Origin: an uncultured Candidatus Saccharibacteria bacterium
Lineage (GTDB): Bacteria; Patescibacteriota; Minisyncoccia; Minisyncoccales; JAGMDC01
NCBI GenBank assembly: GCA_964615205.1
Contig: CAZTQA010000001.1
Coordinates: 510 to 64,509, forward strand
Direction: 5' to 3'
Length of the DNA: 64,000 nt
A model generated the notes under the pieces. That model worked only from the letters and a program-made list of their open reading frames with translations, did not search any database and had not been told where the DNA came from. Below, one piece after another: positions 19,647 through 61,511 of the stretch. Both the position numbers and the translations under genes were made by a program. How positions within the stretch are numbered: the first letter of the stretch is position 1; the number at the start of each line of letters is the position of its first letter.

Positions 19647-20709
19647 TTCAAAAAAAATTCTAAAGCTTTTTAATATTTTTGTTCCAGAAAAGCAAGAAGA
19701 TATTAATTCCTTTTCTGAAAAAGTAAATAAGCTTATTAATCCGGTTATCAAACAACTACTCACCTCTTATGTTGATAAAAAAAACAAAGAGGTTGTTTTT
19801 TACCAAATTGAAGTAGGAGGGAAAAGATTAAGGCCGGCCCTGGCTATGATTTGCTGCAAGATGCTGAGAGGCAAGATTAAAGATGTCATATATCCGGCTG
19901 CCGGCTTGGAAATCTTGCATAATTATTCTTTAATTATTGACGATATTATTGATAACAGCCAGAAAAGAAGAGGTGAGCCAACTTGTTGGGTGAAATTCGG
20001 TAGTTCTGTGAGCCAGTGTATCGGGGTTGACTATTCAGCAGCTATTTTTCAGTCAGCTAAAAATTCTAAAGACCCGACTAAAATTTCAGAAATTTTTTCT
20101 ACTACCTTAAAAGAAATAGTTGATGGTGAAATTATGGATATGCTTTTTGAGCAAAGAGGAAGAGAGAACGAGCCATATATTGTTAAAAATAGGTATAAAA
20201 AGATTAATGAAAAGGATTATCTGTATATGATAAACAAGAAAACCTCGGCTTTGTTTCGAAGTTGTTGCGAAATCGGGGGCATTTGCGCTGATGCTAATCA
20301 AAAACAGCTTGAAGCTTTAAGAGAATATGGCTTGAATATAGGTATTGCTTTTCAAGTTAAAGATGACATTTTGGATATTTTCGGCAAGGAAAGAAAATTC
20401 GGAAAGAAAATCGGAAAAGACATTATGGAGAGAAAAAGAGGGAATATAGTTGTTCTTTTGGCTTTGAAGCAGCTCAATTCCAGTGATAAAAACGAACTTT
20501 CCGAGATTTTGAAGAAAGATAGAATCAGTCGGAAAAATGTTAAAAAAGCAGTAGCCATAATTGAAAAAACTAATGCTAAAAACTTAGCTTTTCAATTCGG
20601 GGAAAAATATATTCAGAAAGCCAAAGATAACTTGGATTTGCTTCCCCATAATAAATGGAATCAAATTTTAAAACAGCTTACAGAATTCACCCTCACCCGC
20701 GAAAAATAA
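19624..20709 (+). CDS. Polyprenyl diphosphate synthase (GGPP/FPP synthase family)
   Basis: First Asp-rich motif LIIDDIIDNSQKRRG, second FQVKDDILD, GGKRLRP. Confidence 0.85.
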   Translation: MIMKTFYNSKKILKLFNIFVPEKQEDINSFSEKVNKLINPVIKQLLTSYVDKKNKEVVFYQIEVGGKRLRPALAMICCKMLRGKIKDVIYPAAGLEILHNYSLIIDDIIDNSQKRRGEPTCWVKFGSSVSQCIGVDYSAAIFQSAKNSKDPTKISEIFSTTLKEIVDGEIMDMLFEQRGRENEPYIVKNRYKKINEKDYLYMINKKTSALFRSCCEIGGICADANQKQLEALREYGLNIGIAFQVKDDILDIFGKERKFGKKIGKDIMERKRGNIVVLLALKQLNSSDKNELSEILKKDRISRKNVKKAVAIIEKTNAKNLAFQFGEKYIQKAKDNLDLLPHNKWNQILKQLTEFTLTREK

Positions 20710-20760
20710 AAGGAGCTAAGCTCCTTTTGGAATAACTCAAAATGATTTGAGTATTTTTTT
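20710..20760 (+). terminator. Two tandem hairpin terminators after the polyprenyl synthase gene
   Basis: AAGGAGC-TAA-GCTCCTT then TTGG (20710-20729). ACTCAAA-ATGA-TTTGAGT followed by ATTTTTTT (20735-20760). Confidence 0.6.
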
Positions 20761-20909
20761 CTAATGGGGTAGAATTAAACAATGGCGGAAAAAGACACCT
20801 CTTTGCTTTCTTATTATGGTTTTACCAAGGCAGACCAGAAAAAATACCCGGTCATCTCGGGTATAGTTTTAAAAAATAGACATTAATAAAGGAAGTTTGT
20901 AAAAAACAA

Positions 20910-22040
20910 ATGAATAGAATTTATCAAACTATTATTATCGGTGCAGGACCTGCAGGGTTGATAGCGGGTAGACATTTAAAAGATTCTTTAATTTTAGATC
21001 AAAAACAAGAAATTGGTAAACCGGTACAATGTGGAGAAGGAATTAGCAGAGATGCTCTTAAAATACATAATATAGAACCAGATTCTTCCTGGATTTCTTG
21101 TGACATTCATAGGGTTGAAAGAATAATGCCGAACGGTAAAAGAATAGGTAAATTTCATAAGGAAGCAATAGGATATATTCTAGATAGAACTGCTTTCGAA
21201 AAATTCTTAGCGAGTACTGTCAAGGCTGAGATTAAATTAAAAAGCAAAGTTGTTGATTTAAATAAAGAAAACAATATTTGGTGTGTTAAAACGCAAAATG
21301 GAGAAATATTTAAATCTAAATATATTATTGGAGCCGATGGACCAAATTCTATAGTACGAGAAAAGGTTTTTAAAGAGAGAATAAAGATCCTCCCAGCAGT
21401 TGAATATTTATTAGAATTAGAGAAAGAAATAAAAGTAGATACCTTGGAAATTTATTTAAATAATGAAAAATATCCTCAGGGATATGCTTGGATTTTTCCT
21501 AAATCAAGAAATACGGCTAATATAGGTATTGGTGGACAAGGGGATCTTTTAGAAAAATTTAGGGAATTTTTAGAAGAGGAGGTGAGAATTAAATATCAAA
21601 ATTATAAAATTCTAGAAAATAGAAGTGGAGTTGTTCCTTTTGCTAAACCCTCAACAATTATTAAAGATGGAGTATTATTAGTCGGTGATGCCGCTGGTTT
21701 TACAAATAGCGTTTTTAAGGCAGGAATAAGTAGAGCGATGTGGTCTGCAAGGATTTGCAGTCAACTTATTTTAGATAATGATATAAGTTCTCATAAGCAC
21801 AAAACAAGAGTAATTTTGTTTACCGGTTCTAAACTAGATAGAGCAGGAAGTATATTGTATGCTTTTAGCAATGAATCACTCAATGAATTAGGAGGTTTTT
21901 TAGAGAATAAGAATGCTTCTTATTATAAAAATATATTAGTAATAATGAAAATGTTATTTAGTCATTCTTTAAGAAAGGATATTTTGAAAATGTTTGAATT
22001 TATTTCAATCTGGAAAAAATACAAAAAATATAGTTGGTAA
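20910..22040 (+). CDS. Geranylgeranyl reductase family FAD-dependent oxidoreductase
   Basis: IIIGAGPAGLIAG dinucleotide fold, CGEGIS, IIGADGPNSIVR, GYAWIFPK...ANIGIGG. These are signatures of the archaeal/bacterial GGR family. Confidence 0.75.
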   Translation: MNRIYQTIIIGAGPAGLIAGRHLKDSLILDQKQEIGKPVQCGEGISRDALKIHNIEPDSSWISCDIHRVERIMPNGKRIGKFHKEAIGYILDRTAFEKFLASTVKAEIKLKSKVVDLNKENNIWCVKTQNGEIFKSKYIIGADGPNSIVREKVFKERIKILPAVEYLLELEKEIKVDTLEIYLNNEKYPQGYAWIFPKSRNTANIGIGGQGDLLEKFREFLEEEVRIKYQNYKILENRSGVVPFAKPSTIIKDGVLLVGDAAGFTNSVFKAGISRAMWSARICSQLILDNDISSHKHKTRVILFTGSKLDRAGSILYAFSNESLNELGGFLENKNASYYKNILVIMKMLFSHSLRKDILKMFEFISIWKKYKKYSW

Positions 22041-22912
22041 TAATTAAAATAATCATGAATTTTTCACAAGCCTTGAAATTAATCTTTAATGAATTTCTTT
22101 ACGGTGGACATTTAATCTCACTAGGAGCTGTTGGCATAGTTTTTTCGTCGGCTATTTTATTAGAAATAAAAATAGATTTGGATTTTTTGATAATTGTATA
22201 TTTATTTAGTTATAATTCTATTTTATATAATCGGTATAGAGAATTTAGAATTGATTATTTAACTAATCCAGAGAGGACTAAAAATTTAAGAAAATATTTT
22301 AAATATATTTCTTTAATTCTTTGTTTTTCCATACTGATTACTACAGGTATATTTATTTTTAATAATAAATTTTTGGCTTTATTCTTTTTGATTCTATTAT
22401 CTTTATTGACTTTCTTATATACAGAGTATTTTAAAAATATAACTAAAAATATATTTATTTTTAAGAATATTTATTTCTCTTTTGTCACGGGTTTATTATT
22501 AATATTATTGGTCCTTTATTATTCTTATCCAATTTTGAATTTCATTTTTTTTATAATTTTCATTTTTGTTTTTCTAAGAATGTTTATCAATACAGTGTTT
22601 CTTGATATCAAAGATGTTAAAGGTGATAATAAAATAAGGTTAAAGACAATTCCAATTTTATTTGGCGAAACCAAAACATTAAAAATTTTACAATTATTAA
22701 GTATGATATCAATATTACCAATACTTATTGGGGTTTATCTTGGTTTTTTACATCTTTTTTCTTTAGTTCTTATTTTCATAGTTCCTTATTCTTTTTACTA
22801 TTTTTTTGAGTCTAAAAAGAGAAAAAATTTTTATTTAGTAAATTATTTTTTAGCTGATTTAGAGTTTATTTTATGGCCAATTTTACTTTTATTGTCTAAA
22901 AATTTAATATGA
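22034..22912 (+). CDS. UbiA-superfamily membrane prenyltransferase
   Basis: About 8 hydrophobic helices. Second Asp-rich motif DIKDVKGD...LKTIPILFG. The first motif is the variant N-RYR-E-FRI-D (NxxxExxxD). Overlaps the GGR stop. Confidence 0.65.
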   Translation: MVIIKIIMNFSQALKLIFNEFLYGGHLISLGAVGIVFSSAILLEIKIDLDFLIIVYLFSYNSILYNRYREFRIDYLTNPERTKNLRKYFKYISLILCFSILITTGIFIFNNKFLALFFLILLSLLTFLYTEYFKNITKNIFIFKNIYFSFVTGLLLILLVLYYSYPILNFIFFIIFIFVFLRMFINTVFLDIKDVKGDNKIRLKTIPILFGETKTLKILQLLSMISILPILIGVYLGFLHLFSLVLIFIVPYSFYYFFESKKRKNFYLVNYFLADLEFILWPILLLLSKNLI

Positions 22913-24540
22913 TCGAATTAATTAATTTCTTATTCATAAATAAATTTATTATTATTTTAGTAAGTAGTTTTGGAATCTATCTGGCTTTTTGGGTTTATTA
23001 TGCTGATCGAAAAGCGAAAACGAATCAATTATTCACTTTGATGATGCTTTTTGCTCTTTCTTGGATTATTCTTTGTTATTTCAGTGGGATATTAATTAAT
23101 AATTTAGGTTTATCATTATTTTTGGCAAGACTAGCTTACGGGATAGCTATTCTTTTTTTCATACCCTTTTATTTTTTCTCTTTATGGTTTATCAAGAAAA
23201 AAGAAGAGGTTCGGCTTTTAAAGATTTTTATTCCGATAGGAAGTTTAACTATCTTTTTTCTATCTGTTTTTACTGATTTTATGGCAGAAAAAATGATTCC
23301 TATAAATATAATAGGAATTTCTATGGGTGTAGCTCCCGTTATAGGTGTTGGAAAATTTATTTATTTTGGTTTTGTATTCTTTGTCGCCGTATTAGTTGTT
23401 GTTCGTCTTATTAAGGCATATTTTAAAGTATCGAAAATTGAGAAGTTAAAATTACAATATTTCTTAATCGGCATTATAATTTTTGTAATTGCTAATCTTG
23501 TTTTTAATGTTATTTTTGCTTCGTGGGTGGGGGATGCGAGATATTATCAACTTGGGAATTATTCGGCCATATTTTTGTTGGCGTTTACGGCGTATGCGAT
23601 TGTGAAAAGGGAATTGTTCGGGATTAAGGTTATTGTAACCTCCATATTTGTAGTTTTGATTGCGATTCTGCTTGCCTTAGATATGCTGTTGTTTACAGAA
23701 GTTTTCTTAATTAAAGCACTGAAAACTGCGGCTTTATTGATATTCCTTGTCTTTGGCAGAATCTTGATAAACAGCGTTGCAAATGAAGTTAAAAGAAGAG
23801 AGGAGTTGGAGAAATTAAGCCGAGCTAAGTCAGAGTTTATTTCTATGGCTTCCCACCAATTGAGAACCCCTTTGACTGCTATTAAAGGATATAGCTCTTT
23901 GATGATGGAAGGCACTTACGATAAATCAAAAGCAAAACAAAAGAAAGTTTTAAAGAATATTTTTATTTCTACAGAAAGATTGATTAAAATCGTAAATGAC
24001 TTGTTGAATCTTTCCAGAATTGAATTAGGTAGATTAGAGATAGAAAAAGAGCCGGTAAGGATTGAAGAATTGGCAGAGAGCGTTTTTAAAGAAATGAAGT
24101 CGCGCGCCAAAGAAAAAGAAATAAAACTTTTATATGAGAAGCCGAAGCAAGAGTTACCGGAACTAAATCTTGATTCTTTGAAAATAAGGCAGGCCATATT
24201 TAATTTAGTTGACAATGCCATAAAGTATACAGAAGATGGAGAAATAAAGATTATTATTGAAAAAATAAAAGATAAGATTAGGATTACCATTAGCGACACA
24301 GGCAGGGGTTTTAGCAGCGAAGAGGCCAAAAGATTATTTGAGCTTTTTATTAGAGGAGAAGCGGGCATAGATACTTTTGTGGAAGGAACAGGGATTGGTC
24401 TCAATGTTGCCAGAAAATTTGTTGAGCTTCACGGGGGCAATATTAGAGCAGAATCAGAAGGAAAAAATAAGGGAGCTAAATTTTACATTGAACTTCCCAT
24501 TGTTTCCAAAGAAGCAGAAGAATTTATTAAAAGAATATAA
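22909..24540 (+). CDS. Sensor histidine kinase with polytopic N-terminal membrane domain
   Basis: About 7 TM helices, then H-box SEFISMASHQLRTPLT, N-box NLVDNAIKYT, DTGRGF, GTGIGLNVAR. Confidence 0.8.
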   Translation: MIELINFLFINKFIIILVSSFGIYLAFWVYYADRKAKTNQLFTLMMLFALSWIILCYFSGILINNLGLSLFLARLAYGIAILFFIPFYFFSLWFIKKKEEVRLLKIFIPIGSLTIFFLSVFTDFMAEKMIPINIIGISMGVAPVIGVGKFIYFGFVFFVAVLVVVRLIKAYFKVSKIEKLKLQYFLIGIIIFVIANLVFNVIFASWVGDARYYQLGNYSAIFLLAFTAYAIVKRELFGIKVIVTSIFVVLIAILLALDMLLFTEVFLIKALKTAALLIFLVFGRILINSVANEVKRREELEKLSRAKSEFISMASHQLRTPLTAIKGYSSLMMEGTYDKSKAKQKKVLKNIFISTERLIKIVNDLLNLSRIELGRLEIEKEPVRIEELAESVFKEMKSRAKEKEIKLLYEKPKQELPELNLDSLKIRQAIFNLVDNAIKYTEDGEIKIIIEKIKDKIRITISDTGRGFSSEEAKRLFELFIRGEAGIDTFVEGTGIGLNVARKFVELHGGNIRAESEGKNKGAKFYIELPIVSKEAEEFIKRI

Positions 24541-26678
24541 TGGATAAGCAGTATCAAGCGGAGAAAATTGAAGAAAAAATTTATGACCTTTGGGAAAAGG
24601 GCGGTTTTTTTAATCCAGACAAACATAAAGCAAAACTTAAGAAAAGTTTTTCCATTGTTTTACCGCCGCCCAACATTACCGGCTCTTTGCATATAGGCCA
24701 CGCCTTGAATGCCACTATTCAGGATATTATTATAAGGTGGAAAAGAATGTCTGGCTTTAAGACTCTCTGGGTGCCCGGCATTGATCATGCCGGAATTGCC
24801 ACCCAGAATGTAGTTGAAAAGAAACTTAAGAAAGAAGGCAAGACAAGATTTGATTTAGGAAGAGAAAATTTTGTTAAAGAAGTTTGGAAATGGAAAAAAG
24901 AGAAAGGGGATACTATTTTAAAACAGCTTAGAAAGATGGGCGTTTCCTGCGACTGGTCCAGAACTACATTCACCATGGATGACCATTATATTGAAGCAGT
25001 CAAACAGGCTTTTCTGCATTACTATAATAAGGGCATGATTTACAGAGGGGAAAGGCCGGTTAATTGGTGCCCGCGCTGCCAGACCAGTTTGTCTGATTTG
25101 GAAGTAGAATATAAAGAAGAGAAAAGCAAACTTTGGTATTTAAAATACCCTTTCAAAGAAGATAAAACAAAGTTTGTTGTAGTGGCGACTACTCGGCCGG
25201 AAACAATGCTGGGCGATACAGCTGTGGCTGTTAATCCAAGAGATAAAAGGTATAAGGATAAGATTGGCAAAACTTTAATCTTGCCCATAATTAAGAGAGA
25301 AATACCTATTATTACTGACCAAGCCATAGATCCTAAATTCGGCACAGGAGCTATTAAAGTAACGCCAGCTCATGACTTTGTGGATTACCAAATAAGTCAG
25401 AGAAACAATTTGGAAATGGTTAAAGTCATTGATGAAAAAGGAGAAATAGAAGGAGTGCCTGTTCAAGAAACCAGAAAAAACATTTTGGAAAAATTAGAAA
25501 AATTAGGATTAATTGAGAAAACTGAAGATTATATCCATAAAGTTCCCCAGTGTTATCGTTGCGGTACTGTTTTAGAAATAATTCCTTCCAAACAATGGTT
25601 CTTGAAAATGGACAAATTAGCCAAGTTAGCCATTAAACCAGTAAAGAAAGGGGAGATAAAATTTCATCCTAATAAATGGGAAAAGCCGTATTTTGAATGG
25701 CTGGAGAAAACCTTGGATTGGTGCATTTCCAGACAGCTTTGGTGGGGACATCGGCTTCCTGTCTGGCAGTGCCAGAATCAAAAAGAAAAATATTTTGCTT
25801 CTTTAGATAAACCAAAAAAATGTTCTATCTGCGGGAAATGCCAACCCAAGCAATCAGAAGATGTTTTAGATACTTGGTTTTCTTCTGCTCTCTGGCCTTT
25901 CGCTGTTTTTGGATGGCCTCAAAAAACTAAACATCTGAAAATATTTTATCCTACTGATGTTTTAAGTACGGCGAGAGACATTATTAATTCTTGGGTGGCT
26001 AGAATGGTTTTTTCTTCGCAGGAATTCAATAAAAAAAATCCTTTCCAAAATATTATTATTCATCCTACTGTTCTTACCAAAGACGGAAGAAGAATGTCCA
26101 AGTCATTAGGAACAGGCGTAGATCCTTTGGATTTAATAGATAAATATGGTGCGGATGCGGTTCGTTTCGGATTAGCTTGGGAAATAACCGGATTGCAGGA
26201 TATTAGATTTACTGAAGATAACATAATAGCGGGCAAGAAGTTTTGCAATAAATTATGGAATGCTTCCCGGTTTGTAACTTTTCAGCTTGGAAGAAAGAAA
26301 TTTGATGATAAAAAAAAGCCCAAATCAATTACCGCTCAAGACAAAAAAATACTTAAAGATTTTGAAAAATTAGTTCACTCTAATACAGATAATTTAAACC
26401 AATTTCGTTTTGCTAAAGCTATTCAAAATACCTACCATTTTTTCTGGCATAATTTCTGCGATATCTATATTGAAAAATCAAAGATTCAAATTAAAGAAGC
26501 TAATTCAGAAAAAGAAGCTGACAATACAAGACAGATCCTCGTTTATGTCTTAATTAATTCTTTAAAAATGCTCCATCCTTTCATTCCATTTGTCACAGAA
26601 GAAATATACCAGAACTTTCCTTTAAAGCAAAAAAAGACATTGATTATTGAGGATTGGCCGTGTTATAATAGAAGATAG
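24540..26678 (+). CDS. valS: Valyl-tRNA synthetase (short form, 712 aa)
   Basis: PPPNITGSLHIGHALN, TTRPETMLGDTAVAV, KMSKSLGTGVDP. No long C-terminal coiled-coil is apparent. Confidence 0.9.
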   Translation: MDKQYQAEKIEEKIYDLWEKGGFFNPDKHKAKLKKSFSIVLPPPNITGSLHIGHALNATIQDIIIRWKRMSGFKTLWVPGIDHAGIATQNVVEKKLKKEGKTRFDLGRENFVKEVWKWKKEKGDTILKQLRKMGVSCDWSRTTFTMDDHYIEAVKQAFLHYYNKGMIYRGERPVNWCPRCQTSLSDLEVEYKEEKSKLWYLKYPFKEDKTKFVVVATTRPETMLGDTAVAVNPRDKRYKDKIGKTLILPIIKREIPIITDQAIDPKFGTGAIKVTPAHDFVDYQISQRNNLEMVKVIDEKGEIEGVPVQETRKNILEKLEKLGLIEKTEDYIHKVPQCYRCGTVLEIIPSKQWFLKMDKLAKLAIKPVKKGEIKFHPNKWEKPYFEWLEKTLDWCISRQLWWGHRLPVWQCQNQKEKYFASLDKPKKCSICGKCQPKQSEDVLDTWFSSALWPFAVFGWPQKTKHLKIFYPTDVLSTARDIINSWVARMVFSSQEFNKKNPFQNIIIHPTVLTKDGRRMSKSLGTGVDPLDLIDKYGADAVRFGLAWEITGLQDIRFTEDNIIAGKKFCNKLWNASRFVTFQLGRKKFDDKKKPKSITAQDKKILKDFEKLVHSNTDNLNQFRFAKAIQNTYHFFWHNFCDIYIEKSKIQIKEANSEKEADNTRQILVYVLINSLKMLHPFIPFVTEEIYQNFPLKQKKTLIIEDWPCYNRR

Positions 26679-44838: not shown

Positions 44839-45351
44839 TTATTTTTTTGAGATAATCATTGTCAATCCTCGGGCTTCTTTTTTTAAACCTCTTTCTACCT
44901 TAAATTCTACAAGTGCACTCAGCATTTCTTTGAATTTATTTGTTTTCTCTCTGGCAAAATCCTGTAGGGCTTTCTCTCTTCCTCTTAGGCGCATCTCAAT
45001 TCTTACTTTATTGCCTTCTTTCAAAAATTTTTCAGCTTGCTTAACCCGTGTTTCCATATCATGAGGAGAAATGTTAAAGCTTAGCTTTATGCCTTTCATT
45101 TCTCCGCCCTTTTGTTTCTTGGCGGATTTTCTTTCCTGTTTTTTTTCTAGATACTGGTATTTCCCATAATCCATTATTTTACAAACCGGAACATCCAATT
45201 TTTCCGTTACCTGAATTAAATCTAAATTGCGCTCCCGAGCTATGTGGAGCGCTTCCTCCAAATTTAAAACACCCAAGTTTTTGCCGCTTTCATCAATTAC
45301 TCTAACTTGTTTAGCCCTTATTCCATTGTTGACAAATGTTCTTTTAAACAA
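44839..45351 (-). CDS. infC: Translation initiation factor IF-3 (TTG start; the ORF-track N-terminus is spurious)
   Basis: VNNGIRAKQVRVIDESGKNLGVL...VCKIMDYGKYQY are IF3 motifs. ORF-track residues 1-21 are encoded by the tmRNA 3' end. The in-frame TTG at 45351 gives 170 aa, the normal IF3 size. Confidence 0.85.
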   Translation of the reverse strand: MFKRTFVNNGIRAKQVRVIDESGKNLGVLNLEEALHIARERNLDLIQVTEKLDVPVCKIMDYGKYQYLEKKQERKSAKKQKGGEMKGIKLSFNISPHDMETRVKQAEKFLKEGNKVRIEMRLRGREKALQDFAREKTNKFKEMLSALVEFKVERGLKKEARGLTMIISKK

Positions 45352-45358
45352 TTTTCTG

Positions 45359-45705
45359 TGGAGATGAGGAGAATTGAACTCCTGTCCAGAAACTTCCCTA
45401 AGATATTTCGACAAGCTTAAAAAGTTTTGCCTCTTTTTCTTAACAGCTATTCGAGGCGGGATAGCTGTCTATCTCGATAATATGACACCTTCCTTATTTA
45501 TCGAGAGTCAATAAAGAAGATGGCATTACGATTAAACGTAAGCAGGAACTAATCCAGCTACGCCGCCGCCAAAGGCATTGGCAAAAGCTGCTTTAGTTTT
45601 AGAAATTAAGTTGGCGCTTATTTCTTTTTCCCAAAGTTTAACGAGGTTTGAGAAAACTCGGCTTGCATACCTTAGTTCAGATTCCTGTCTATGCCTTTCA
45701 TCCCC
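45359..45705 (-). ncRNA. ssrA: tmRNA (SsrA)
   Basis: 5' GGGGATG pairs with 3' CATCTCC, including the G3-U70 Ala identity pair, followed by discriminator A. T-arm GGAC-AGGAG-TTCAATT-CTCCT matches E. coli GGAC-GCGGG-TTCAACT-CCCGC. Internal tag frame ends ...GGGVAGLVPAYV-TAA. Located directly downstream of smpB. Confidence 0.88.
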
Positions 45706-47497: not shown

Positions 47498-49087
47498 ATG
47501 GATACCATTAGAGGAGAAATAAGAAGAGTAGTTCAGGAAGCAGTAAAAAAAGAATGGCCCAAAATAAGATTGGATGAAGTTTTAGTTGAAGTTCCGGAAA
47601 ATAATAAATATGGGGACTATTCAAGCAATATTGCTATGCAATTGGCAAGACAAGTCAAAGAAGAGCCACTAAAAATAGCAGAAATTTTACAGAAAGAAAT
47701 GCTAAATACTAAATATAAGATACAAGATACATTCGAGAAAATTGAATTATCAGAGCCGGGATTTATAAACTTTTTTGTATCCAAAGAATATTTACAAAAT
47801 CAGGTTAAAGAGATTTTAAGACAAAAAGAGAAATTCGGGCACTTAAAGATTGGCAAGAATAAAAAAATAAATATAGAATTTATTTCTGCCAATCCCACTG
47901 GTCCTTTAACCATCGGCAATGCTCGAGGCGGAGTTTTTGGAGATGTCTTAGGAAATGTTTTTAGGGTAGCTGGTTATAAAGCGGAGAAAGAATACTATAT
48001 TAATGATTTCGGGAATCAGATTATAGCATTAGGTCATTCTGTTCTAAAAGACAAGGAAACTGTTTATAAAGGAGACTATATTAATAAACTTCATAAAAAA
48101 GTAAAAGAAAAAGATGTTTTTAAGGCTGGACAGAAAACAGCCAAAATAATTTTAGAGGAAATGATAAAAAAGACAGTTAAGAGAATGGGTATTCAGTATG
48201 ATAATTGGTTTTGGGAAAGCCAGCTACATAAGAAAAAAGAAGTAGATAAAACAATAGATTTATTGAAAAAGAAAAACTTAGTTTATGAAAAAGATGATGC
48301 TTTCTGGTTTAAATCAAGAAAGTTCCAGGATAACAGAGACAGAGTTTTAATAAAAAAAGACGGGTCTAAGACTTATTTAGCCGGAGATATCGCTTATCAT
48401 AGAGACAAAATTGAAAAGAGAAGATTTGATAAAGTTATAAATGTTTGGGGTGCAGATCATGCTGGTGATGTAGCTGGTTTGAAGGCAGGAGTAGAAGCTT
48501 TGGGATATAAAAATAAAGTTGAGATAGTTTTGCATCAATTTATAACTATTCTGAAAAAAGGAGAAAGACAAAGAATGTCAAAAAGAAAAGGAATCTATTT
48601 TACTATGGATGAATTAATTGAAGAAGTGGGTAAGAATGTTATAAGATTCTTTTTTCTTCAGAAAACGATTAACACTCATTTGAACTTTGATCTGGATTTA
48701 GCCAAGGAAGAGTCAGAAAAGAACCCGGTTTATTATGTTCAATATGCCTATGCTCGAATTTGTTCAATAATTCGCAAATCCGAGAAATCCCAAATCCCAA
48801 ATCCCAAATTTAATTTATTAGAACATCCGAGCGAATTAAAGTTAATTAAACAATTAGTTAGATTTCCGGAAGTAGTTGCAGACGTTTCTAAGGATTATCA
48901 GGTTCAGAAATTGCCGCAATATGCTTTGGATTTAGCCGCAATTTTCCATCAGTTTTATCAAGACTGTCGAGTAATCTCTGATAATAAAAACCTTAGTCAA
49001 TCGCGTCTGGCCCTTATCACGGCCACGAAAATTATTTTTAAAAACAGTTTTGATTTGATGGGTATTTCTGCTCTCCGAAAGATGTAA
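47498..49087 (+). CDS. argS: Arginyl-tRNA synthetase
   Basis: SANPTGPLTIGNARG (HIGH-region equivalent), GADH, MSKRKG, anticodon-binding C-terminal domain. Confidence 0.9.
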   Translation: MDTIRGEIRRVVQEAVKKEWPKIRLDEVLVEVPENNKYGDYSSNIAMQLARQVKEEPLKIAEILQKEMLNTKYKIQDTFEKIELSEPGFINFFVSKEYLQNQVKEILRQKEKFGHLKIGKNKKINIEFISANPTGPLTIGNARGGVFGDVLGNVFRVAGYKAEKEYYINDFGNQIIALGHSVLKDKETVYKGDYINKLHKKVKEKDVFKAGQKTAKIILEEMIKKTVKRMGIQYDNWFWESQLHKKKEVDKTIDLLKKKNLVYEKDDAFWFKSRKFQDNRDRVLIKKDGSKTYLAGDIAYHRDKIEKRRFDKVINVWGADHAGDVAGLKAGVEALGYKNKVEIVLHQFITILKKGERQRMSKRKGIYFTMDELIEEVGKNVIRFFFLQKTINTHLNFDLDLAKEESEKNPVYYVQYAYARICSIIRKSEKSQIPNPKFNLLEHPSELKLIKQLVRFPEVVADVSKDYQVQKLPQYALDLAAIFHQFYQDCRVISDNKNLSQSRLALITATKIIFKNSFDLMGISALRKM

Positions 49088-49119: not shown

Positions 49120-52100
49120 ATGAACATTAATTTTCCTCAATTAGAAGATAGAATAATAACGTTTTGGAAAAGAAATAAAATTTTTGATAAATCAATCGAA
49201 AGGCGTAAAAAATCGCCCTATTTTGTTTTTTATGAAGGTCCGCCCACTGCCAACGGAAAACCAGGCATTCATCATCTTGAAGCGCGCGCCTTCAAAGATA
49301 TTATCTGCCGCTACAAAACAATGCAAGGATTTAAAGTTTTAAGAAAAGCAGGCTGGGATACCCATGGCTTGCCAGTGGAGCTGGAAGTAGAAAAGGAATT
49401 AGGTTTAAAAAGCAAAAAAGACATTGAGAAATTCGGTGTGGCTGAATTCAACCAGAAATGCAAAGAATCAGTTTGGAAGTATAAGAAAAATTGGGAAGAT
49501 TTAACTCAAAGAATCGGCTATTGGCTGGATACAGACAATCCCTATATCACTTATGAGAATGATTATATAGAAACAGTTTGGTGGATTTTAAGGCAGATTT
49601 GGAATAAAAAAATGTTATACCAAGATTATAAGGTAGTGCCTTATTGCCCGCGCTGCGGTACTTCGCTTTCTTCTCATGAAGTTGCCCAGGGATACAAGAA
49701 AGTTAAAGAACCGTCAATCTATATCAAATTCAAGATTAAGGATTCAAGATTTAAAAATACTTATTTATTGGTCTGGACGACTACGCCCTGGACTTTACCC
49801 GGCAATACGGCTGTGGCAATTAATCCTGATATTACTTATATTAAAGTTAAATTTAATAAAGAATATCTAATTTTAGCCAAGCAAAGAATAAAGGAATGCG
49901 GAATTGAGGGTGAAATTAAGGAGGAATTTAAAGGGAAAAAGTTAATTGGATTAAAGTACAAACCATTATATGAGGATAAAGCTCCTTATAAAATAATTAA
50001 AGGGGATTTTGTTACTACTGAAGAAGGAACCGGGTTAGTTCATATTGCGCCAGCTTTTGGCGAAGACGATATGAAAGTGGCTAAAGAAAATAATATTTCT
50101 GTTTTAATTACTGTAGATGAACAGGGAAAAATGAAAACATCTGGCTATAAATGGAACAAGCTCTTTATTAAGGAGGCGGATAGTTTAATTATTAATGAGT
50201 TAGCCAACAGAAATTTACTTCTTAAACAAGAACTTTACGAGCATGATTATCCCTTTTGCTGGAGATGTAAAACTCCCTTAATCTATTACGCTAAAAAATC
50301 TTGGTTCATCAAAACAACTAAGATTAAAAAAGAACTAATTAAAAACAATCAGGAAATAAATTGGATTCCGAATAATTTAAAACAAGGCAGGTTTGGTGAA
50401 TGGCTCAAAGAATTAAAAGACTGGGCAGTTTCCAGGGAAAGGTATTGGGGAACGCCTCTACCTGTTTGGCAGTGCCAGAAATGCGGTTATGAGGAATGCA
50501 TCGGCTCTAAAAAGGATTTATTAGAACAAGAATTCACCACTAATCATTATTTTGTTTTGCGGCATGGAGAAACTGAATGCTATAAAAAAGGGGTTCTTAA
50601 TTATAAAGATAGGGGGGCTAATTGTCCCTTAACTCAATATGGACAAGAACAGATTGAAAAAGTTGCTAAGAAAATAAAAAATAAAAAAATAGATTTAATT
50701 TTTTCATCTGATTTTTTTCGTACTAGGCAAACAGCTGAAATTATTTCTCAGAAATTAAGGATTAAGTCTCAATACGATTCTCGCTTGAGAGAAGTTAATC
50801 TGGGTATTTTTCACGGTGAGAATATTAAAAAATACTGGCAGAATTGGCAATCTAGAGTAGAGAAATTTAAAGAGAGAGCGCCAAAAGGGGAAAGTTATCT
50901 TGAGGTTAAAAAAAGAATGGCTGATTTTATTAAAGAAACAGATAGGAAATATAAGAATAAAAATATATTAATTATTAGTCACGGCGGCCCTATTTGGATG
51001 TTAGAAGTTTTAATGAAAGGTTTATCAAATGAGCAAAGTTTAGGGTACTGGACCAAAAGAGCAATTGAAGTCGGCGAATTAAGAGAAATAGAATTTAAAA
51101 AATTGTCTTATAATAATGATTTGAATTTAGATTTTCACCGGCCTTATCTTGATCAGGTAGAATTTCTTTGTCCTGAGTGCCATAATCTGATGAAAAGAGT
51201 TCCAGAAGTAATCGACTGCTGGTTTGATTCCGGGGCAATGCCTTTTGCCCAGTATCATTATCCTTTTGAGAAAGAAAAATTCAAGAGCCAGTTTCCCGCC
51301 GATTATATTTCTGAAGCTATTGACCAAACCAGAGGCTGGTTTTACACGCTTTTAGCTATTTCAACCTCGCTTAACCTTAAAAGCCCTTATAAAAATGTAA
51401 TTTCTTTAGGCCATGTTTTAGATGAAAAAGGAGAAAAGATGTCAAAATCAAAAGGCAATGTAGTTGATCCCTGGGATGTTGTTGAAAAAGACAGCGCTGA
51501 TGCAGCTCGTTGGTATTTCTACACCATTAATCAGCCCGGAGACGCCAAGCTTTTTGCAGAAAAAGATGTTAATACGGCTTTAAAGAAATTTATTTTGACG
51601 TATTACAATATATATGTCTTTTTTACTACTTATGCCGACAAAAAGGAAAAAACTAAAAGTAAGCATGTTTTGGATAAGTGGATTTTATCGCGCTTGAATA
51701 ATTTGATTTTAGAAACCACTAGTAAATTAGACAAATATGATGTTGTTTCAGCAGCCAGAACCATAGAAGATTTCGTTATTAATGATTTATCTTTATGGTA
51801 TGTCAGGCGATCAAGGAAAAGATTTCAAGAAGCTGCATCAACTTTAGAATTTGTTTTATTAACTTTGAGCAGATTAACGGCGCCCTTTGTTCCCTTTATA
51901 TCAGAAGAAATCTATAAAGACATTTCCAATAAAGAATCTGTACACTTGGAAGATTGGCCCAAAGCCAATAAAAAATTGATTAATAAAAAATTAGAAGAAG
52001 AAATGAAACAAGTTAGAGAAATAGTAACTGAAGGATTAAGCCAAAGAGCCAAGGCTGGAATTAAAGTTCGCCAACCCTTAGGCAAACTGGAAATAACTAA

Positions 52101-52449
52101 GAAATTAGAAAAAGATTTTTCAGATTTAATTAAAGAAGAAGTCAATATAAAGAAAGTTGTTTTTGGCAGGGAGATAAAATTAGACACTAAAATTACTCTT
52201 ATTTTGAAAGAAGAAGGTATAGCCAGGGAGATTATGCGTCATATTCAGGAAATGAGGAAAAGAGCTGGTTACAAGCCACAAGACAAAATCATAATTAGAT
52301 TTAGCGGAGATGATTATTTAAAAAAGATTTTAAAAAGAAATAAAGAACTTAATTTAGTAGAAGGCGATAGGCCAAAACAAGTTTTTGATATTGAAAGAAC
52401 TTTTGATATTGATGGAAAAAAACTCTGGCTGGGTATCAGAAAAATATAA
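49120..52449 (+). CDS. ileS: Isoleucyl-tRNA synthetase (type 2) carrying an inserted histidine-phosphatase (PGAM-like) domain
   Basis: PPTANGKPGIHHLEAR, WTTTPWTLPGN, KMSKSKGN, Zn motifs CPRCGT / CWRCKT / CQKCG / CPEC. The insert at aa 476-659 has RHGET, SSDFFRTRQTA, REVNLG and IISHGG. Confidence 0.9.
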   Translation: MNINFPQLEDRIITFWKRNKIFDKSIERRKKSPYFVFYEGPPTANGKPGIHHLEARAFKDIICRYKTMQGFKVLRKAGWDTHGLPVELEVEKELGLKSKKDIEKFGVAEFNQKCKESVWKYKKNWEDLTQRIGYWLDTDNPYITYENDYIETVWWILRQIWNKKMLYQDYKVVPYCPRCGTSLSSHEVAQGYKKVKEPSIYIKFKIKDSRFKNTYLLVWTTTPWTLPGNTAVAINPDITYIKVKFNKEYLILAKQRIKECGIEGEIKEEFKGKKLIGLKYKPLYEDKAPYKIIKGDFVTTEEGTGLVHIAPAFGEDDMKVAKENNISVLITVDEQGKMKTSGYKWNKLFIKEADSLIINELANRNLLLKQELYEHDYPFCWRCKTPLIYYAKKSWFIKTTKIKKELIKNNQEINWIPNNLKQGRFGEWLKELKDWAVSRERYWGTPLPVWQCQKCGYEECIGSKKDLLEQEFTTNHYFVLRHGETECYKKGVLNYKDRGANCPLTQYGQEQIEKVAKKIKNKKIDLIFSSDFFRTRQTAEIISQKLRIKSQYDSRLREVNLGIFHGENIKKYWQNWQSRVEKFKERAPKGESYLEVKKRMADFIKETDRKYKNKNILIISHGGPIWMLEVLMKGLSNEQSLGYWTKRAIEVGELREIEFKKLSYNNDLNLDFHRPYLDQVEFLCPECHNLMKRVPEVIDCWFDSGAMPFAQYHYPFEKEKFKSQFPADYISEAIDQTRGWFYTLLAISTSLNLKSPYKNVISLGHVLDEKGEKMSKSKGNVVDPWDVVEKDSADAARWYFYTINQPGDAKLFAEKDVNTALKKFILTYYNIYVFFTTYADKKEKTKSKHVLDKWILSRLNNLILETTSKLDKYDVVSAARTIEDFVINDLSLWYVRRSRKRFQEAASTLEFVLLTLSRLTAPFVPFISEEIYKDISNKESVHLEDWPKANKKLINKKLEEEMKQVREIVTEGLSQRAKAGIKVRQPLGKLEITKKLEKDFSDLIKEEVNIKKVVFGREIKLDTKITLILKEEGIAREIMRHIQEMRKRAGYKPQDKIIIRFSGDDYLKKILKRNKELNLVEGDRPKQVFDIERTFDIDGKKLWLGIRKI

Positions 52450-52454
52450 TTAAA

Positions 52455-53147
52455 ATGTTTATTCATTATCGGACAAAAGGGATTTTCATTAAAAGACAAG
52501 AAAGGGAAGAAGCAGATATTCTTTTTACAGTTTACACTCAAAATTTCGGAAAGATAGATATTTTAGGCAAAAGCATAAGAAAGATAAATTCCAAACTACG
52601 CGCTGGCTCCAGAGAATTGTGTTTGTCAGAAATTGAATTTATTCAAGGCAAGACCCATAAAACATTAACAGATTCTCTTCTGATTGACAACTTTCCAGAA
52701 ATAAGGGAAGATTTAGATAAAACAGAGATTGCTTTTCAGATTTGTAATATTTTAGATCAGTTAGTGGCTGAAGAACAGAAAGATGATCAGATCTGGGAGT
52801 TATTGTTAGAGAGTTTTGAAAGATTAAATACTGAACACAAGCTTTGTTATTTTTTCTTTCTCTGGAATCTTTTAGCTATTCTTGGTTATCAGCCCGAACT
52901 TTATAAATGCGCTTTATGCGAGAAGAAATTAGATCCAAATGATCTTCATTTTAGTTCAGAGCAGGGAGGATTGGTCTGTTCTGTCTGTGCTGGAAAAGAT
53001 TCTATTTCTGTAAAAGCAGAAGTAATAAAAATCCTGCGTTTGATTTTAAACAAAAATTGGGATATTTTAACGAAATTAAAAACAGAAGAAAAAAATTGGC
53101 AGGAATTAGAAAAAGTTTCTCAAAAATATGTTTTTGAGTTAAAATAG
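52455..53147 (+). CDS. recO: DNA repair protein RecO
   Basis: N-terminal OB-fold-like region (GIFIKRQEREEADILFTVYT), Zn-finger CALCEKK...CSVC. Confidence 0.8.
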   Translation: MFIHYRTKGIFIKRQEREEADILFTVYTQNFGKIDILGKSIRKINSKLRAGSRELCLSEIEFIQGKTHKTLTDSLLIDNFPEIREDLDKTEIAFQICNILDQLVAEEQKDDQIWELLLESFERLNTEHKLCYFFFLWNLLAILGYQPELYKCALCEKKLDPNDLHFSSEQGGLVCSVCAGKDSISVKAEVIKILRLILNKNWDILTKLKTEEKNWQELEKVSQKYVFELK

Positions 53148-54837: not shown

Positions 54838-56163
54838 ATGCAAAATTTGATGCAAAAAATTATATCTTTGTCTAAACGCAGGGGATTTATTTTCCCTTCT
54901 TCAGATATTTATGGCGGTTTTGGAAGCTGTTATGATTTTGGTCCCTTAGGCGTGGAGATGAAAAGAAATATTAAAAATCTCTGGTGGGACGCAATGCTTA
55001 AAAAACATGATGGTATTGTAGGTTTAGATGCCAGCATTTTAATGTCTCCCAAGGTTTGGCAGGCCTCTGGTCATTTAACAGCCGGCTTTGCTGATGAATT
55101 AGTTGAGTGCAAAAAATGCCATAAAAGATTTAAATTAGATGAGATTTCCGGTTCAAAAAAATGTCCTGAATGCGGAGGAGAATTGACCAAACCCAGGAGA
55201 TTCAATTTAATGATGAAAACTTTTGTAGGTTCAGTGGAAAATGAAGCAGCTACTACTTATTTAAGAGCTGAAACTTGCCAGGGAATATATGTTAATTTTT
55301 TGAACGTTCTCAATTCTATGAGAATGAAACTTCCTCTTGGTATTGCACAGATAGGCAAGGCCTTTAGAAACGAAATAACTCCAGGCAATTACGTTTTTAG
55401 AGTGCGTGAATTTGAACAAATGGAAATGCAGTGGTTCTGTAAACCTTCTGAAGATAATAAATGGTTTAATTTTTGGAAAAAAGAAAGATTAAATTGGTAT
55501 TTAAATTTAGGAATAAAGAAAAAAGATTTAAAATTAGTAGAAGTTCCGGAAAAAGACAGGGCCCATTATGCTAAAAGACAGGTTGATATTGAATATCAGT
55601 TTCCCTTTGGTTGGAAAGAAATTGAGGGAGTACATAATCGAGGCGATTGGGATTTATCTAATCATTCTAAACACAGTGGTCAGGATTTATCTTATTTTGA
55701 CGATCAATCCAACAAGAAATACATCCCCCATATTATTGAGACATCAGTGGGAGTGGAAAGAATTTTATTAATGTTTCTTTGTAACAGCTATAAAGAAATC
55801 AAGGGAGGAAGAACCATAACTACTCAATCAGCTAAAGAAATAGAATCAGTTTTGGAATTAGATAAGAGATTGGCTCCAATTAAAGTAATTGTTCTTCCCT
55901 TAGTCAGAAATAAGCCGGAATTAATTAAAAAAGCAGACAAAGTCTATAACCTACTAAAGACAGAGTTTGTTACTCAATATGACGAAGTAGGTTCCATTGG
56001 CAGGCGTTATCGCCGGGCTGACGAAATTGGAATACCCTTTGCTGTTACTATTGATTTTGACACCTTGAAAGATGATACTGTCACGATCCGTGACCGCGAC
56101 ACTATGAAGCAAAAAAGGGTCAAGACAAATCAGCTTGTGGATATTTTAAATAAAAATATTTGA
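54838..56163 (+). CDS. glyQS: Glycyl-tRNA synthetase (alpha2 class II type)
   Basis: RRGFIFPSSDIYGGFGSCYDFGPLG, FRNEITPGN..FRVREFEQMEMQ (motif 2), ETSVGVERI (motif 3). Confidence 0.9.
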   Translation: MQNLMQKIISLSKRRGFIFPSSDIYGGFGSCYDFGPLGVEMKRNIKNLWWDAMLKKHDGIVGLDASILMSPKVWQASGHLTAGFADELVECKKCHKRFKLDEISGSKKCPECGGELTKPRRFNLMMKTFVGSVENEAATTYLRAETCQGIYVNFLNVLNSMRMKLPLGIAQIGKAFRNEITPGNYVFRVREFEQMEMQWFCKPSEDNKWFNFWKKERLNWYLNLGIKKKDLKLVEVPEKDRAHYAKRQVDIEYQFPFGWKEIEGVHNRGDWDLSNHSKHSGQDLSYFDDQSNKKYIPHIIETSVGVERILLMFLCNSYKEIKGGRTITTQSAKEIESVLELDKRLAPIKVIVLPLVRNKPELIKKADKVYNLLKTEFVTQYDEVGSIGRRYRRADEIGIPFAVTIDFDTLKDDTVTIRDRDTMKQKRVKTNQLVDILNKNI

Positions 56164-60080: not shown

Positions 60081-61511
60081 ATGTTAAATGAGAAATTTTT
60101 CATTTCTACAGCTATTGATTATGTTAATGCCAAGCCGCATTTAGGCCATGCTTTAGAAAAAGTTCAGGCCGACGTTATTGCAAGACACAGCCGCCTTTTA
60201 AACAAGGAGGTTTTCTTTTTGAGCGGTAGCGATGAAAACAGCTTAAAAAATGTTCAGGCCGCCAAAAAAGAAAATATTCCTGTTCAAGAATTGGTTAATA
60301 AGAATTCTCAAAAATTCTATAAATTAAAAGAAGTTTTGAATCTTTCTTATGATGATTTCATAAGAACCACGGAAGAGCGGCATATTCAAGGGGTTCAAAA
60401 ATTTTGGCAGGTTTGTCAAAAAGATATTTATAAGAAAAAGTACAAGGGGCTTTACTGTGTCGGATGCGAGCAGTTCTATACTGTAAAGGAACTTGAAAAT
60501 GGGCTTTGTCCAGAACACAAGACCAAGCCGGAATTAATAGAAGAAGAAAATTATTTTTTTCGTCTTTCTAAATACGAAAATCAGATTAAAGAATTAATAC
60601 AAAAAGATAAATTAAAAATAATTCCTCAAGCCAGGAAAAACGAAGTTTTAAGTTTTGTTAATCAGGGCTTAGAAGATATTTGCGTTTCCCGTTCCAGCCA
60701 GAGAGCTGGAGGCTGGGGGATTGAAGTGCCAGGAGATCCTACCCAAATCATATGGGTTTGGATGGATGCTCTTTCTAATTACATTAATGCCTTAGGTTAT
60801 ACTAATGAATCAAAAAAGTATAAAGATTTTTGGTCTCAAAAAAATCAAATTCTTCATGTGATTGGAAAAGGAATTTTAAGATTCCATGCTGTTTATTGGT
60901 CAGCTTTTCTTTTGAGCGCAGGTTTAACTTTGCCTAAAACTATTTTTGTTCATGGATATATTACTTCTGACAGCCAAAAAATGTCCAAATCATTAGGCAA
61001 TGTTATTGACCCTTTTGAATTAGTTGAAAAATATGGAGTTGATCCAGTGAGATATTTTCTTTTAAGAGAAATTTCTCCATACCAAGACGGTGATTTTAGT
61101 TATCAGAAATTTGAAGAGCGCTACAATGCTGATTTGGCCAGCGGCTTAGGGAATTTTACTGCCCGTGTTGTCACACTCGCAGATAAAAATTTCAAATCCC
61201 AGATTACGAATCCTGGATTACAAAGAATGATAAGCCAGACGCAAAAAGAATATCATAAGTTGTTAGATGAATTTAAATTTAATGAAGCCTTGGAAAAAAT
61301 TTGGAAGTTAATCAGTTTCTGTGATAAATACATTGAAGAGAAAAAACCTTGGGAAAAATCAAAAGAACGAGGATTAGTTATTAATGATTTACTCTTTGCT
61401 TTGGAAAATATTGCTCAGATGCTTGAACCATTCCTACCAGAAACATCAGAGAAGATATTAAAACAGATAGAAACTCAAAAAAGCAAACCACTCTTCCCGC
61501 GGATATGTTAA
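60081..61511 (+). CDS. metG: Methionyl-tRNA synthetase (short form)
   Basis: YVNAKPHLGHALE (HIGH), Zn knuckle CVGCEQF...CPEH, KMSKSLGNVIDP. Confidence 0.9.
   Translation: MLNEKFFISTAIDYVNAKPHLGHALEKVQADVIARHSRLLNKEVFFLSGSDENSLKNVQAAKKENIPVQELVNKNSQKFYKLKEVLNLSYDDFIRTTEERHIQGVQKFWQVCQKDIYKKKYKGLYCVGCEQFYTVKELENGLCPEHKTKPELIEEENYFFRLSKYENQIKELIQKDKLKIIPQARKNEVLSFVNQGLEDICVSRSSQRAGGWGIEVPGDPTQIIWVWMDALSNYINALGYTNESKKYKDFWSQKNQILHVIGKGILRFHAVYWSAFLLSAGLTLPKTIFVHGYITSDSQKMSKSLGNVIDPFELVEKYGVDPVRYFLLREISPYQDGDFSYQKFEERYNADLASGLGNFTARVVTLADKNFKSQITNPGLQRMISQTQKEYHKLLDEFKFNEALEKIWKLISFCDKYIEEKKPWEKSKERGLVINDLLFALENIAQMLEPFLPETSEKILKQIETQKSKPLFPRIC

Follow-up and report, generated by a model that had tools for sequence, protein, structure and literature searches.

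The window analysed here, a 64,000-nucleotide stretch of contig CAZTQA010000001.1 from an uncultured Candidatus Saccharibacteria bacterium, encodes an isoleucyl-tRNA synthetase (IleRS) that carries a histidine phosphatase domain of branch 1 nested inside its own catalytic domain. The gene and its parts are listed below in window positions. Conservation is given throughout for the 120 closest database proteins, which show identities of 57–100 %.

49120–52449, + strand: ileS, type-2 isoleucyl-tRNA synthetase with nested phosphatase, one uninterrupted open reading frame (ORF) of 1109 amino acids (aa)
49264–49275, + strand: class I signature motif GIHH (aa 49–52), a swapped GXHH instead of HXGH, read from the translation
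49690–50259, + strand: CP1 editing domain (aa ~191–380); the isolated IleRS editing-domain structures 1WK8, 1WNY and 1UE0 match aa 191–378
50473–50484, + strand: CP3 zinc knuckle, first Cys pair C452-Q-K-C455, upstream of the insert; both Cys in 120 of 120 homologs
50524–50544, + strand: N-terminal linker EQEFTTN (aa 469–475); the 1ILE alignment stops at aa 468, and N475 is found in 120 of 120
50545–51096, + strand: histidine phosphatase (branch 1) domain (aa 476–659, 184 aa), seen by the His_Phos_1 profile, an AlphaFold2 (AF2) model and Foldseek
51097–51126, + strand: C-terminal linker KKLSYNNDLN (aa 660–669), leading back into IleRS at LDFHRPY; the 1ILE alignment resumes at aa 670
51169–51180, + strand: CP3 zinc knuckle, second Cys pair C684-P-E-C687; both Cys in 120 of 120
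51436–51450, + strand: KMSKS loop (aa 773–777), invariant in 120 of 120
51673–52080, + strand: anticodon-binding helical domain (Pfam Anticodon_1, aa 852–987)

The identity of the host enzyme is well supported. Against the NCBIfam ileS model TIGR00392 the ORF scores 911.4 bits (cut-off 621.4), and this score, the GXHH and KMSKS motifs and the CP1 editing and anticodon-binding domains consistently indicate membership in the IleRS family. The best matches in the PDB are 1ILE from Thermus thermophilus and the IleRS2 of P. megaterium. The GIHH of the window protein aligns with HVGH of 1ILE and with GVHH of the 8C8W mutant, and its residues G49, H51 and H52 are near-invariant among 70 aligned homologs. 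For IleRS2, GXHH has been described as a functional variant to which mupirocin hyper-resistance is tied (PMC10485003). Apart from the insert, the window protein aligns end to end with IleRS2 (GXHH; PMC10485003) and 1ILE, sharing the GXHH motif, KMSKS, the CP1 editing domain, the CP3 Cys pairs and the C-terminal DUF5915 domain, but differs from both in a second catalytic domain of ~190 extra residues inside CP3. No second ileS is present within the 64-kb window. An IleRS of ~1100 aa with an extra enzyme domain has been modelled before as NF040702 (ileS_w_GNAT), for which we found no paper; its accessory domain, however, is a GNAT domain, and this assignment was ruled out for the window protein at 298 bits against a cut-off of 1999.

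Searching the full protein against Pfam returned tRNA-synt_1 (E=1e-117) in two stretches, His_Phos_1, Anticodon_1 and DUF5915. The His_Phos_1 match (PF00300) spans aa 478–639 with E=1e-35 and 123.6 bits against a cut-off of 21.7, rising to E=3.4e-37 and 128.4 bits when the 184 insert residues are searched alone. As tRNA-synt_1 and TIGR00392 are each split in two around His_Phos_1, the first-pass annotation was right to describe a nested insertion instead of a terminal fusion, and translation of the single ORF confirms that the synthetase motifs are intact and in frame on either side. 1ILE aligns with aa 4–468 and 670–981, its residues 477 and 488 flanking the gap; because it bridges this gap with only ~10 residues, the window IleRS holds ~190 extra ones, in agreement with the ~184 proposed at the position of a short linker. 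Free-standing homologs of the domain stop just ahead of the segment that forms the KKLSYNNDLN linker. The insert had also been proposed to sit close to where the catalytic part meets the anticodon-binding part, which was not borne out: it lies between both Cys pairs of the CP3 zinc-knuckle subdomain, within the Rossmann-fold catalytic domain and ~100 residues before KMSKS. CP3 of T. thermophilus IleRS carries a zinc-binding motif (PMC7191050); the subdomain is structurally variable among IleRSs and serves as a protein–protein interface in human IARS1. Given this position, the host site is a variable, exposed subdomain within the catalytic domain.

An origin of the insert as an assembly chimera, a frameshift artefact or an intein-like element is already refuted for practical purposes. 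The GC content is flat across the insert, the ORF is single and without a break in composition, and the identical protein is present in four independent sources, namely the NCBI, JGI, ENA and Logan assemblies, on contigs of up to 205 kb. Hundreds of orthologs share the same junctions. An intein or mobile insertion was ruled out, as no Hint or intein domain was matched in Pfam and the junctions ...TTN|HYF... and ...NLDF|HRP... are not intein-like.

The residues on which catalysis in the nested domain would depend are the following.

50560–50568, + strand: R481-H482-G483, catalytic Arg and nucleophilic His; R and H in 120 of 120, G in 117 of 120; aligned with RHG of PhoE and PspA
50581–50583, + strand: Y488 at the phosphate-pocket Asn/Gln position (Asn16/17 equivalent); Q or N in 114 of 120, F in 5, Y in the window protein only
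50719–50721, + strand: R534, second phosphate-binding Arg; 120 of 120
50791–50793, + strand: E558, general acid; E in 84 and D in 36 of 120; aligned to the Glu in "rlrEi.lG" of PhoE
50980–50982, + strand: H621, second active-site His; 120 of 120; aligned to the His in "vtHG" of PhoE

Translation of the region returned all five motifs on which the phosphatase call had been based, and the branch-1 hallmarks proved complete in profile as well as structure comparisons: each catalytic residue has its counterpart in PhoE, PspA and further histidine phosphatases of solved structure. An AF2 model of aa 470–672 is confident (predicted local distance difference test, pLDDT, 91.3; predicted template-modelling score, pTM, 0.89) and places the RHG motif after a strand formed by residues 476–481. 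Foldseek searches with this model gave probabilities of 1.00 and template-modelling (TM) scores of 0.73–0.80 at 20–23 % identity to solved small phosphatases, the nearest folds being 9MMH, PspA (4IJ5/6), Rv2419c, PhoE (1H2E), CobC and TIGAR. Taken together, alignment and model show positions 50545–51096 to encode a complete, well-folded branch-1 histidine phosphatase domain. The insert is also the fastest-evolving part of the protein, with a mean pairwise identity of 52 % compared to 65–77 % for the IleRS core; invariant catalytic residues in the fastest-evolving domain therefore speak for purifying selection on catalysis, and the nested phosphatase is apparently still active.

These data bear directly on the idea of a catalytically dead structural or regulatory insertion, in other words an ordinary lineage-specific expansion segment of IleRS. 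The variability of CP3 and its interface role in human IARS1 would suit such a segment, as would the loss of the pocket Asn/Gln from the window copy. With R, H, R, E/D and H retained in 120 of 120 homologs and in all copies of all architectures described below, and with free-standing orthologs in existence, we nevertheless regard it as extremely improbable.

Assignment to a functional family was less straightforward. CobC (alpha-ribazole phosphatase) was rejected, the insert scoring 110.1 bits against TIGR03162 (cut-off 162.9) and 71 against NF011580 (cut-off 250); GpmB was rejected likewise (NF002901, 80.6 against 261), as was SixA, a weak match at 34 bits against a cut-off of 74.5, and membership in PspA, which was rejected on the curated NCBIfam cut-off. 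The domain could also represent the cell's cofactor-dependent phosphoglycerate mutase (dPGM) or another enzyme of central metabolism, in which case it would be unrelated to translation, and the fusion would have arisen neutrally as the genome was compacted within an operon. The short archaeal dPGM model NF038349 (194 positions) is indeed the second-best NCBIfam match of the insert at 98 bits, but the dPGM models stay far below their cut-offs (NF038349, 97.8 against 225; TIGR01258, 25.6 against 81.7). Alignment to PhoE and PspA assigns the motifs rE.nlG..G and SH[GE]xP of the insert to the phosphatase rather than the mutase type, whose counterparts we take to be ERHYG and HGNSLR. The nearest folds are phosphatases as well, and one described Parcubacterium, which also has an H+-translocating pyrophosphatase (H+-PPase), uses a cofactor-independent phosphoglycerate mutase (PMC5220378). 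All in all, a housekeeping mutase fused by neutral processes appears quite unlikely.

The nested architecture extends far beyond the window. All of the 120 closest database proteins (1100–1214 aa) carry PF00133 together with PF00300, and their source names read Parcubacteria, Nealsonbacteria, Pacebacteria and Patescibacteria. Scanning a one-genome-per-species collection with an alignment of 36 sequences yielded at least 576 tblastn-confirmed matches with the subfamily-specific pattern, whereas the single insert sequence as query gave no match; searched with a profile, 1.84 billion representatives contained 400 clusters (50 % identity) at E<=1e-30. The nested form is a stable trait of Paceibacteria/Parcubacteria-type bacteria of the candidate phyla radiation (CPR). 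Many of the proteins are labelled by NCBI merely as "class I tRNA ligase family protein", and given this generic label IleRS may be scored as missing in surveys of CPR genomes.

Comparison of the best 80 genomic loci revealed that the same phosphatase occurs there in two forms. The genes that flank ileS in the window are the following.

47498–49087, + strand: argS, 32 nt upstream of ileS (Pfam Arg_tRNA_synt_N, tRNA-synt_1d, DALR_1)
52455–53147, + strand: recO, the conserved downstream neighbour (Pfam RecO_N, RecO_C; cluster c2 in 43 related loci)

The nested form is found in 53 of the 80 loci within IleRSs of ~1130–1270 aa, those checked scoring 800–880 bits against TIGR00392. The remaining 27 loci hold a free phosphatase gene of ~190 codons between argS and an ileS that lacks the insert (~910–1015 aa) and has a short linker at the insertion point, of ~10 residues in relatives such as L054. 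The free protein starts and ends with the domain and is 41–50 % identical to the window insert. By synteny, the argS–ileS gap of the window corresponds to the slot that the free gene occupies in sister genomes, the shared order, window included, being rplT-infC-smpB(-) / argS-[phosphatase]-ileS-recO-DUF11 protein-glyS. In the 27 free-type loci, the phosphatase stop codon and the earliest potential ileS start are a median of 1.5 nt apart, and several pairs overlap by 4 nt. At the level of the locus, both forms together were seen in none of the 80. Within the window, no terminator-like site was found between 46985 and 56218 and no T-box or other Rfam element near ileS. A neighbouring gene family (cluster c14) had been considered as Sua5, but on reading its sequence looked unlike Sua5.

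The two forms seem to have changed places repeatedly. A bootstrapped neighbour-joining (NJ) tree of IleRS, calculated without the inserts, retains at least 7 changes between free and nested state once nodes below 70 % support are collapsed, and free-type clades are embedded in nested-type clades at 95–100 % support. The ArgRS tree likewise mixes three states, and the tree of the free phosphatase follows ArgRS, not IleRS. Trees built from the N- and the C-terminal half of IleRS are both interspersed with 7–8 changes, so that a simple scenario of recombination in the N-terminal half is unsupported. The free phosphatase gene accompanies three different IleRS types. At the same locus, 12 free-type genomes (L013, L019, L024, L029, L031, L037, L042, L043, L047, L049, L051 and L062) contain a very divergent IleRS with motifs such as KRYWGLALPIFEC ... 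SPHRPW ... VGN, and the close ArgRS relatives of these genomes have a type-2 IleRS with or without the insert. As the divergent IleRS sits among such relatives, ileS seems to be replaced in situ frequently. The trees provide evidence for what would be repeated exchange or rearrangement at the argS–ileS locus.

We classified the best 150 representatives of the profile search by architecture. They comprise 60 free single domains and ~75 domains nested in IleRS, fragments included; several contain two tandem copies, one fragment contains four and three are free double domains. Reading the junctions revealed four distinct insertion sites in IleRS, each with several members.

Site A: the insertion point as in the window IleRS
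Site A': behind DLHKHxxD and the second Cys pair, ahead of RRIPEVLDCWF; 16 members or more, some of them labelled Candidatus Peregrinibacteria by NCBI
Site B: after CWFESGSMPYAQxHYPF, before FPAxFIAEGxDQTRGWF
Site C: in the loop opening the anticodon-binding domain, before LDRWxxSEL

Individual IleRSs bear two to four phosphatase domains in tandem or at two sites (P0122, P0205, P0246, P0169, P0364 and P0374). The two-copy form combining sites B and C (P0246-type) has six cluster members on contigs of up to 1.06 Mb. Copies within one protein share 25–35 % identity and all are catalytically intact; R-H-(N/Q)-R-E-H is kept by each copy in the other architectures except for one tandem copy, which has Ala in place of N/Q. 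Sites A', B and C, represented by P0373, P0239 and P0374 (which combines C with A), belong to Peregrinibacteria-like lineages. Starting a search from P0239 led to Peregrinibacteria-like IleRSs with and without the phosphatase domain, and the genomic contexts of P0302 and P0374 contain no argS.

Partners other than IleRS were encountered as well. One ArgRS (P0139, L081 5001–7070) carries the phosphatase at its C-terminus; its locus is syntenic with the window, the argS::phosphatase gene leading straight to recO, and ileS is missing there. A 387-aa protein on a 3.7-kb Logan contig (P0216) joins a Sua5/YciO/YrdC domain (TsaC-like, of the N6-threonylcarbamoyladenosine, t6A, pathway) to a phosphatase of the same subfamily and, as a singleton on a short contig, constitutes weak evidence. 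On a 1.93-Mb contig, a YbaK-like tRNA_edit (trans-editing) gene (L083 5509–5964) follows mutS and lies directly upstream of a phosphatase-bearing ileS.

The diversity of partners returns us to fusion as a neutral by-product. CPR genomes are compact, and the partner being whichever neighbour was at hand, be it IleRS or ArgRS, looks opportunistic; repeated nesting at four sites of IleRS, however, is hard to reach neutrally. The same diversity affects a further idea, that of a protein phosphatase guarding IleRS by taking off inhibitory phosphate groups, such as might sit on the KMSKS loop. HipA-type kinases inactivate other aminoacyl-tRNA synthetases (aaRS), and the histidine phosphatase superfamily does contain protein phosphatases such as PGAM5, Sts-1 and SixA, the last of which gave the weak match mentioned above. 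That match stays below its cut-off, the association holds for IleRS types that differ greatly and for ArgRS as well, and in the loci examined we noticed no kinase that would fit, which leaves a guarding phosphatase very unlikely.

What emerges from the comparisons is a phosphatase module that, on sequence grounds, is catalytically intact and autonomous, and that shows a persistent genetic tie to ileS, either as a seemingly translationally coupled neighbour or as a nested domain. Its autonomy follows from the free gene in 27 of the 80 loci, the three IleRS types, the four sites, the divergent copies and the ArgRS fusion. A fixed geometry to the IleRS active site is not needed, because the free gene works beside ileS, because the nested copies occupy four different loops and because the ArgRS fusion occurs without ileS. 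We consequently favour, at a probability of roughly 55 %, a self-contained phosphomonoesterase that acts on a diffusible phosphorylated small molecule, with nesting serving co-production and co-localisation with IleRS. Catalysis would proceed via phospho-His482, with a phosphate pocket made up of R481, R534 and H621 and with E558 in the role of the acid. By analogy to structural neighbours of the PhoE/CobC/PspA type, the substrate would most plausibly be nucleotide-like or a phosphosugar acid. Nesting would couple the phosphatase obligatorily to an essential and constitutively produced enzyme, in 1:1 amounts and at the same location, adding neither a new step to IleRS chemistry nor a fixed geometry between the two active sites. 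The arrangement would most likely have originated in an argS-phosphatase-ileS operon, from which it may have spread and been rearranged along with the frequently exchanged ileS gene.

Several observations weigh against this explanation. Nested copies recur in IleRS at four sites and also in contexts lacking argS, a recurrence that pure co-expression explains poorly and that may point to a genuine functional connection with IleRS or tRNA(Ile). Every functional NCBIfam equivalog model remained below its cut-off for the insert, the full-length AF2 model reaches only a pLDDT of 76 and a pTM of 0.54 with a poorly modelled catalytic core, and the trees are NJ trees with bootstrap only. The window copy itself is unusual, since Y488 takes the place of the phosphate-pocket Asn/Gln that the family retains, and since the family-specific CWPEK loop between RHG and PLT (aa 495–499, 50602–50616) is replaced by YKDRG. 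Its activity or specificity may hence deviate from that of the family. P0002 and L002, the closest relatives of the window phosphatase, share a similar variant loop; Y488 and YKDRG may reflect altered specificity or relaxed function in a small subclade of the window phosphatase.

The main competitor, to which we attach some but clearly minor weight, is a cis-acting phosphatase on the ends of tRNA(Ile) or on an IleRS-bound ligand. Such an enzyme might remove a 3'-phosphate, a 2',3'-cyclic phosphate or a 3'-pyrophosphate from a damaged or toxin-modified CCA end, or hydrolyse a by-product such as pyrophosphate (PPi) or AMP at its source. The link between the subfamily and IleRS recurs, be it as neighbours in an operon or by nesting at four sites, and extends to lineages without argS synteny; the other fusion partners, ArgRS and the Sua5/TsaC domain, are also enzymes of tRNA metabolism that convert ATP to AMP and PPi; and two to four divergent copies would suit a multi-step dephosphorylation. 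On the other hand, the geometry is not conserved across the four loops, a free protein serves in 27 of the 80 loci, and the free gene coexists with three IleRS types and stays with argS where ileS is absent. No relative acting on RNA ends was found among solved structures, and defence-system models (PADLOC) gave no match. PPi is produced by all aaRS, which leaves specificity for IleRS unexplained. The cis-acting roles suggested in the first-pass annotation, tRNA-end repair and hydrolysis of an alarmone or by-product at the IleRS active site, thus appear partly weakened.

More speculative still, and in our view improbable, the IleRS of these ultra-small bacteria could act in translation repair or licensing: one to four tethered phosphatases that are different paralogs would strip phosphate or pyrophosphate from the tRNA 3' end or from IleRS right before charging. 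It is equally doubtful that this stripping would undo damage or a toxin or kinase modification and so provide host-attached organisms with a built-in countermeasure. If true, the histidine phosphatase superfamily would gain its first activity on RNA ends or aaRS, and the enzyme would be the first aaRS with an integrated phosphatase step.

Comparison with known systems helps to delimit what is unusual here. Small branch-1 phosphatases of broad specificity, represented by PhoE/YhfR (1H2E, 1EBB), the phosphoserine phosphatase PspA (4IJ5), CobC (6E4B, 6NRU), the Rv2419c GpgP (4PZ9) and the riboflavin-pathway phosphatase 9MMH, resemble the insert in fold (TM 0.73–0.80), size (~190–210 aa), R-H/R/E/H arrangement and phosphatase-type motifs. 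Unlike them, the insert, at only 20–23 % identity, belongs to a family with the CWPEK loop whose members reside within an aaRS or are linked to one genetically. The bifunctional RNase H/acid phosphatase of the Rv2228c type (NF005567) similarly joins a CobC/PhoE-like phosphatase to a nucleic-acid enzyme, and the insert matches its phosphatase half with 85 bits over profile positions 181–333 (cut-off 326), but the fusion there is terminal and the partner different. 6-Phosphofructo-2-kinase/fructose-2,6-bisphosphatase and TIGAR, both among the sequence and fold matches, likewise present the phosphatase domain as a module in a bifunctional protein; these are eukaryotic and represent a terminal fusion to a kinase of the same pathway. 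A further architectural parallel is the CP1 editing domain of IleRS, LeuRS and ValRS, again a second catalytic domain in a Rossmann-fold loop of a class Ia synthetase. CP1, however, is universal and hydrolyses mis-acylated products in a defined geometry; the phosphatase occurs in certain lineages only, can be swapped for a free gene and has four insertion sites.

Both domain families are textbook material, and the architecture is implicitly present in databases. We found no paper on IleRS combined with a histidine phosphatase in the literature on IleRS and aaRS, CPR/Patescibacteria, domain insertion and phosphoglycerate mutases. A term search in the papers checked on IleRS and its evolution returned no mention of a phosphatase. 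A 2026 survey of domain insertion (PMC13114784) presents aaRS as preferred hosts for such insertions, and neither "histidine phosphatase" nor "phosphoglycerate mutase" appeared there upon term search. What had escaped notice is the pattern of split, nested and multi-site forms, which is unusually informative.

Elsewhere in the window, six aaRS genes are found within 64 kb, encoding a Trp/Tyr-type enzyme (18654–19646), a short Val/Leu-type enzyme of 712 aa (24540–26678), ArgRS (47498–49087), IleRS (49120–52449), GlyRS (54838–56163) and a 476-aa MetRS (60081–61511); none of the five besides IleRS has an inserted domain. A 440-aa ORF (12991–14313, + strand) unites a LexA DNA-binding domain, a Peptidase_S24 domain (LexA autocleavage) and an N6/N4 DNA methylase, and is convergent with and overlaps a gene for an R.Pab1-type restriction endonuclease (14303–15190, - strand); the region 12991–15190 resembles a restriction-modification system in which methylase and LexA-like repressor form one protein. 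Ahead of a giant ORF of 2215 aa with FG-GAP/beta-propeller repeats (4274–10921, + strand) lie two small pilin-like (N_methyl) genes, encoded on the opposite strand. Genes for a polyprenyl synthetase, a geranylgeranyl-reductase-like protein and a UbiA prenyltransferase stand in a row at 19624–22912 (+ strand), an isoprenoid-lipid-type cluster that is unusual for a bacterium of minimal metabolism. The gene for transfer-messenger RNA (tmRNA; 45356–45705, - strand, 131 bits) has the predicted tag ANLISKTKAAFANAFGGGVAGLVPAYV; because a 191-aa ORF (44839–45414, - strand) overlaps it at 45356–45414, this ORF is doubtful.

aaRS rank among the most studied enzymes, and whenever they bear additional catalytic domains, the editing domains being one example, these have proved mechanistically informative. 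Here, the essential synthetase of a very large and poorly understood bacterial radiation bears one to four apparently active phosphatase domains, and the clear split, nested and multi-site pattern argues that the pairing is selected for. If the substrate is a compound of the aminoacylation cycle or tRNA, this would represent a new coupling of translation and phosphate chemistry. If the phosphatase is instead an unrelated housekeeping enzyme, the family would offer a clean natural experiment on how operon neighbours become nested domains and on how permissive the loops of aaRS are.

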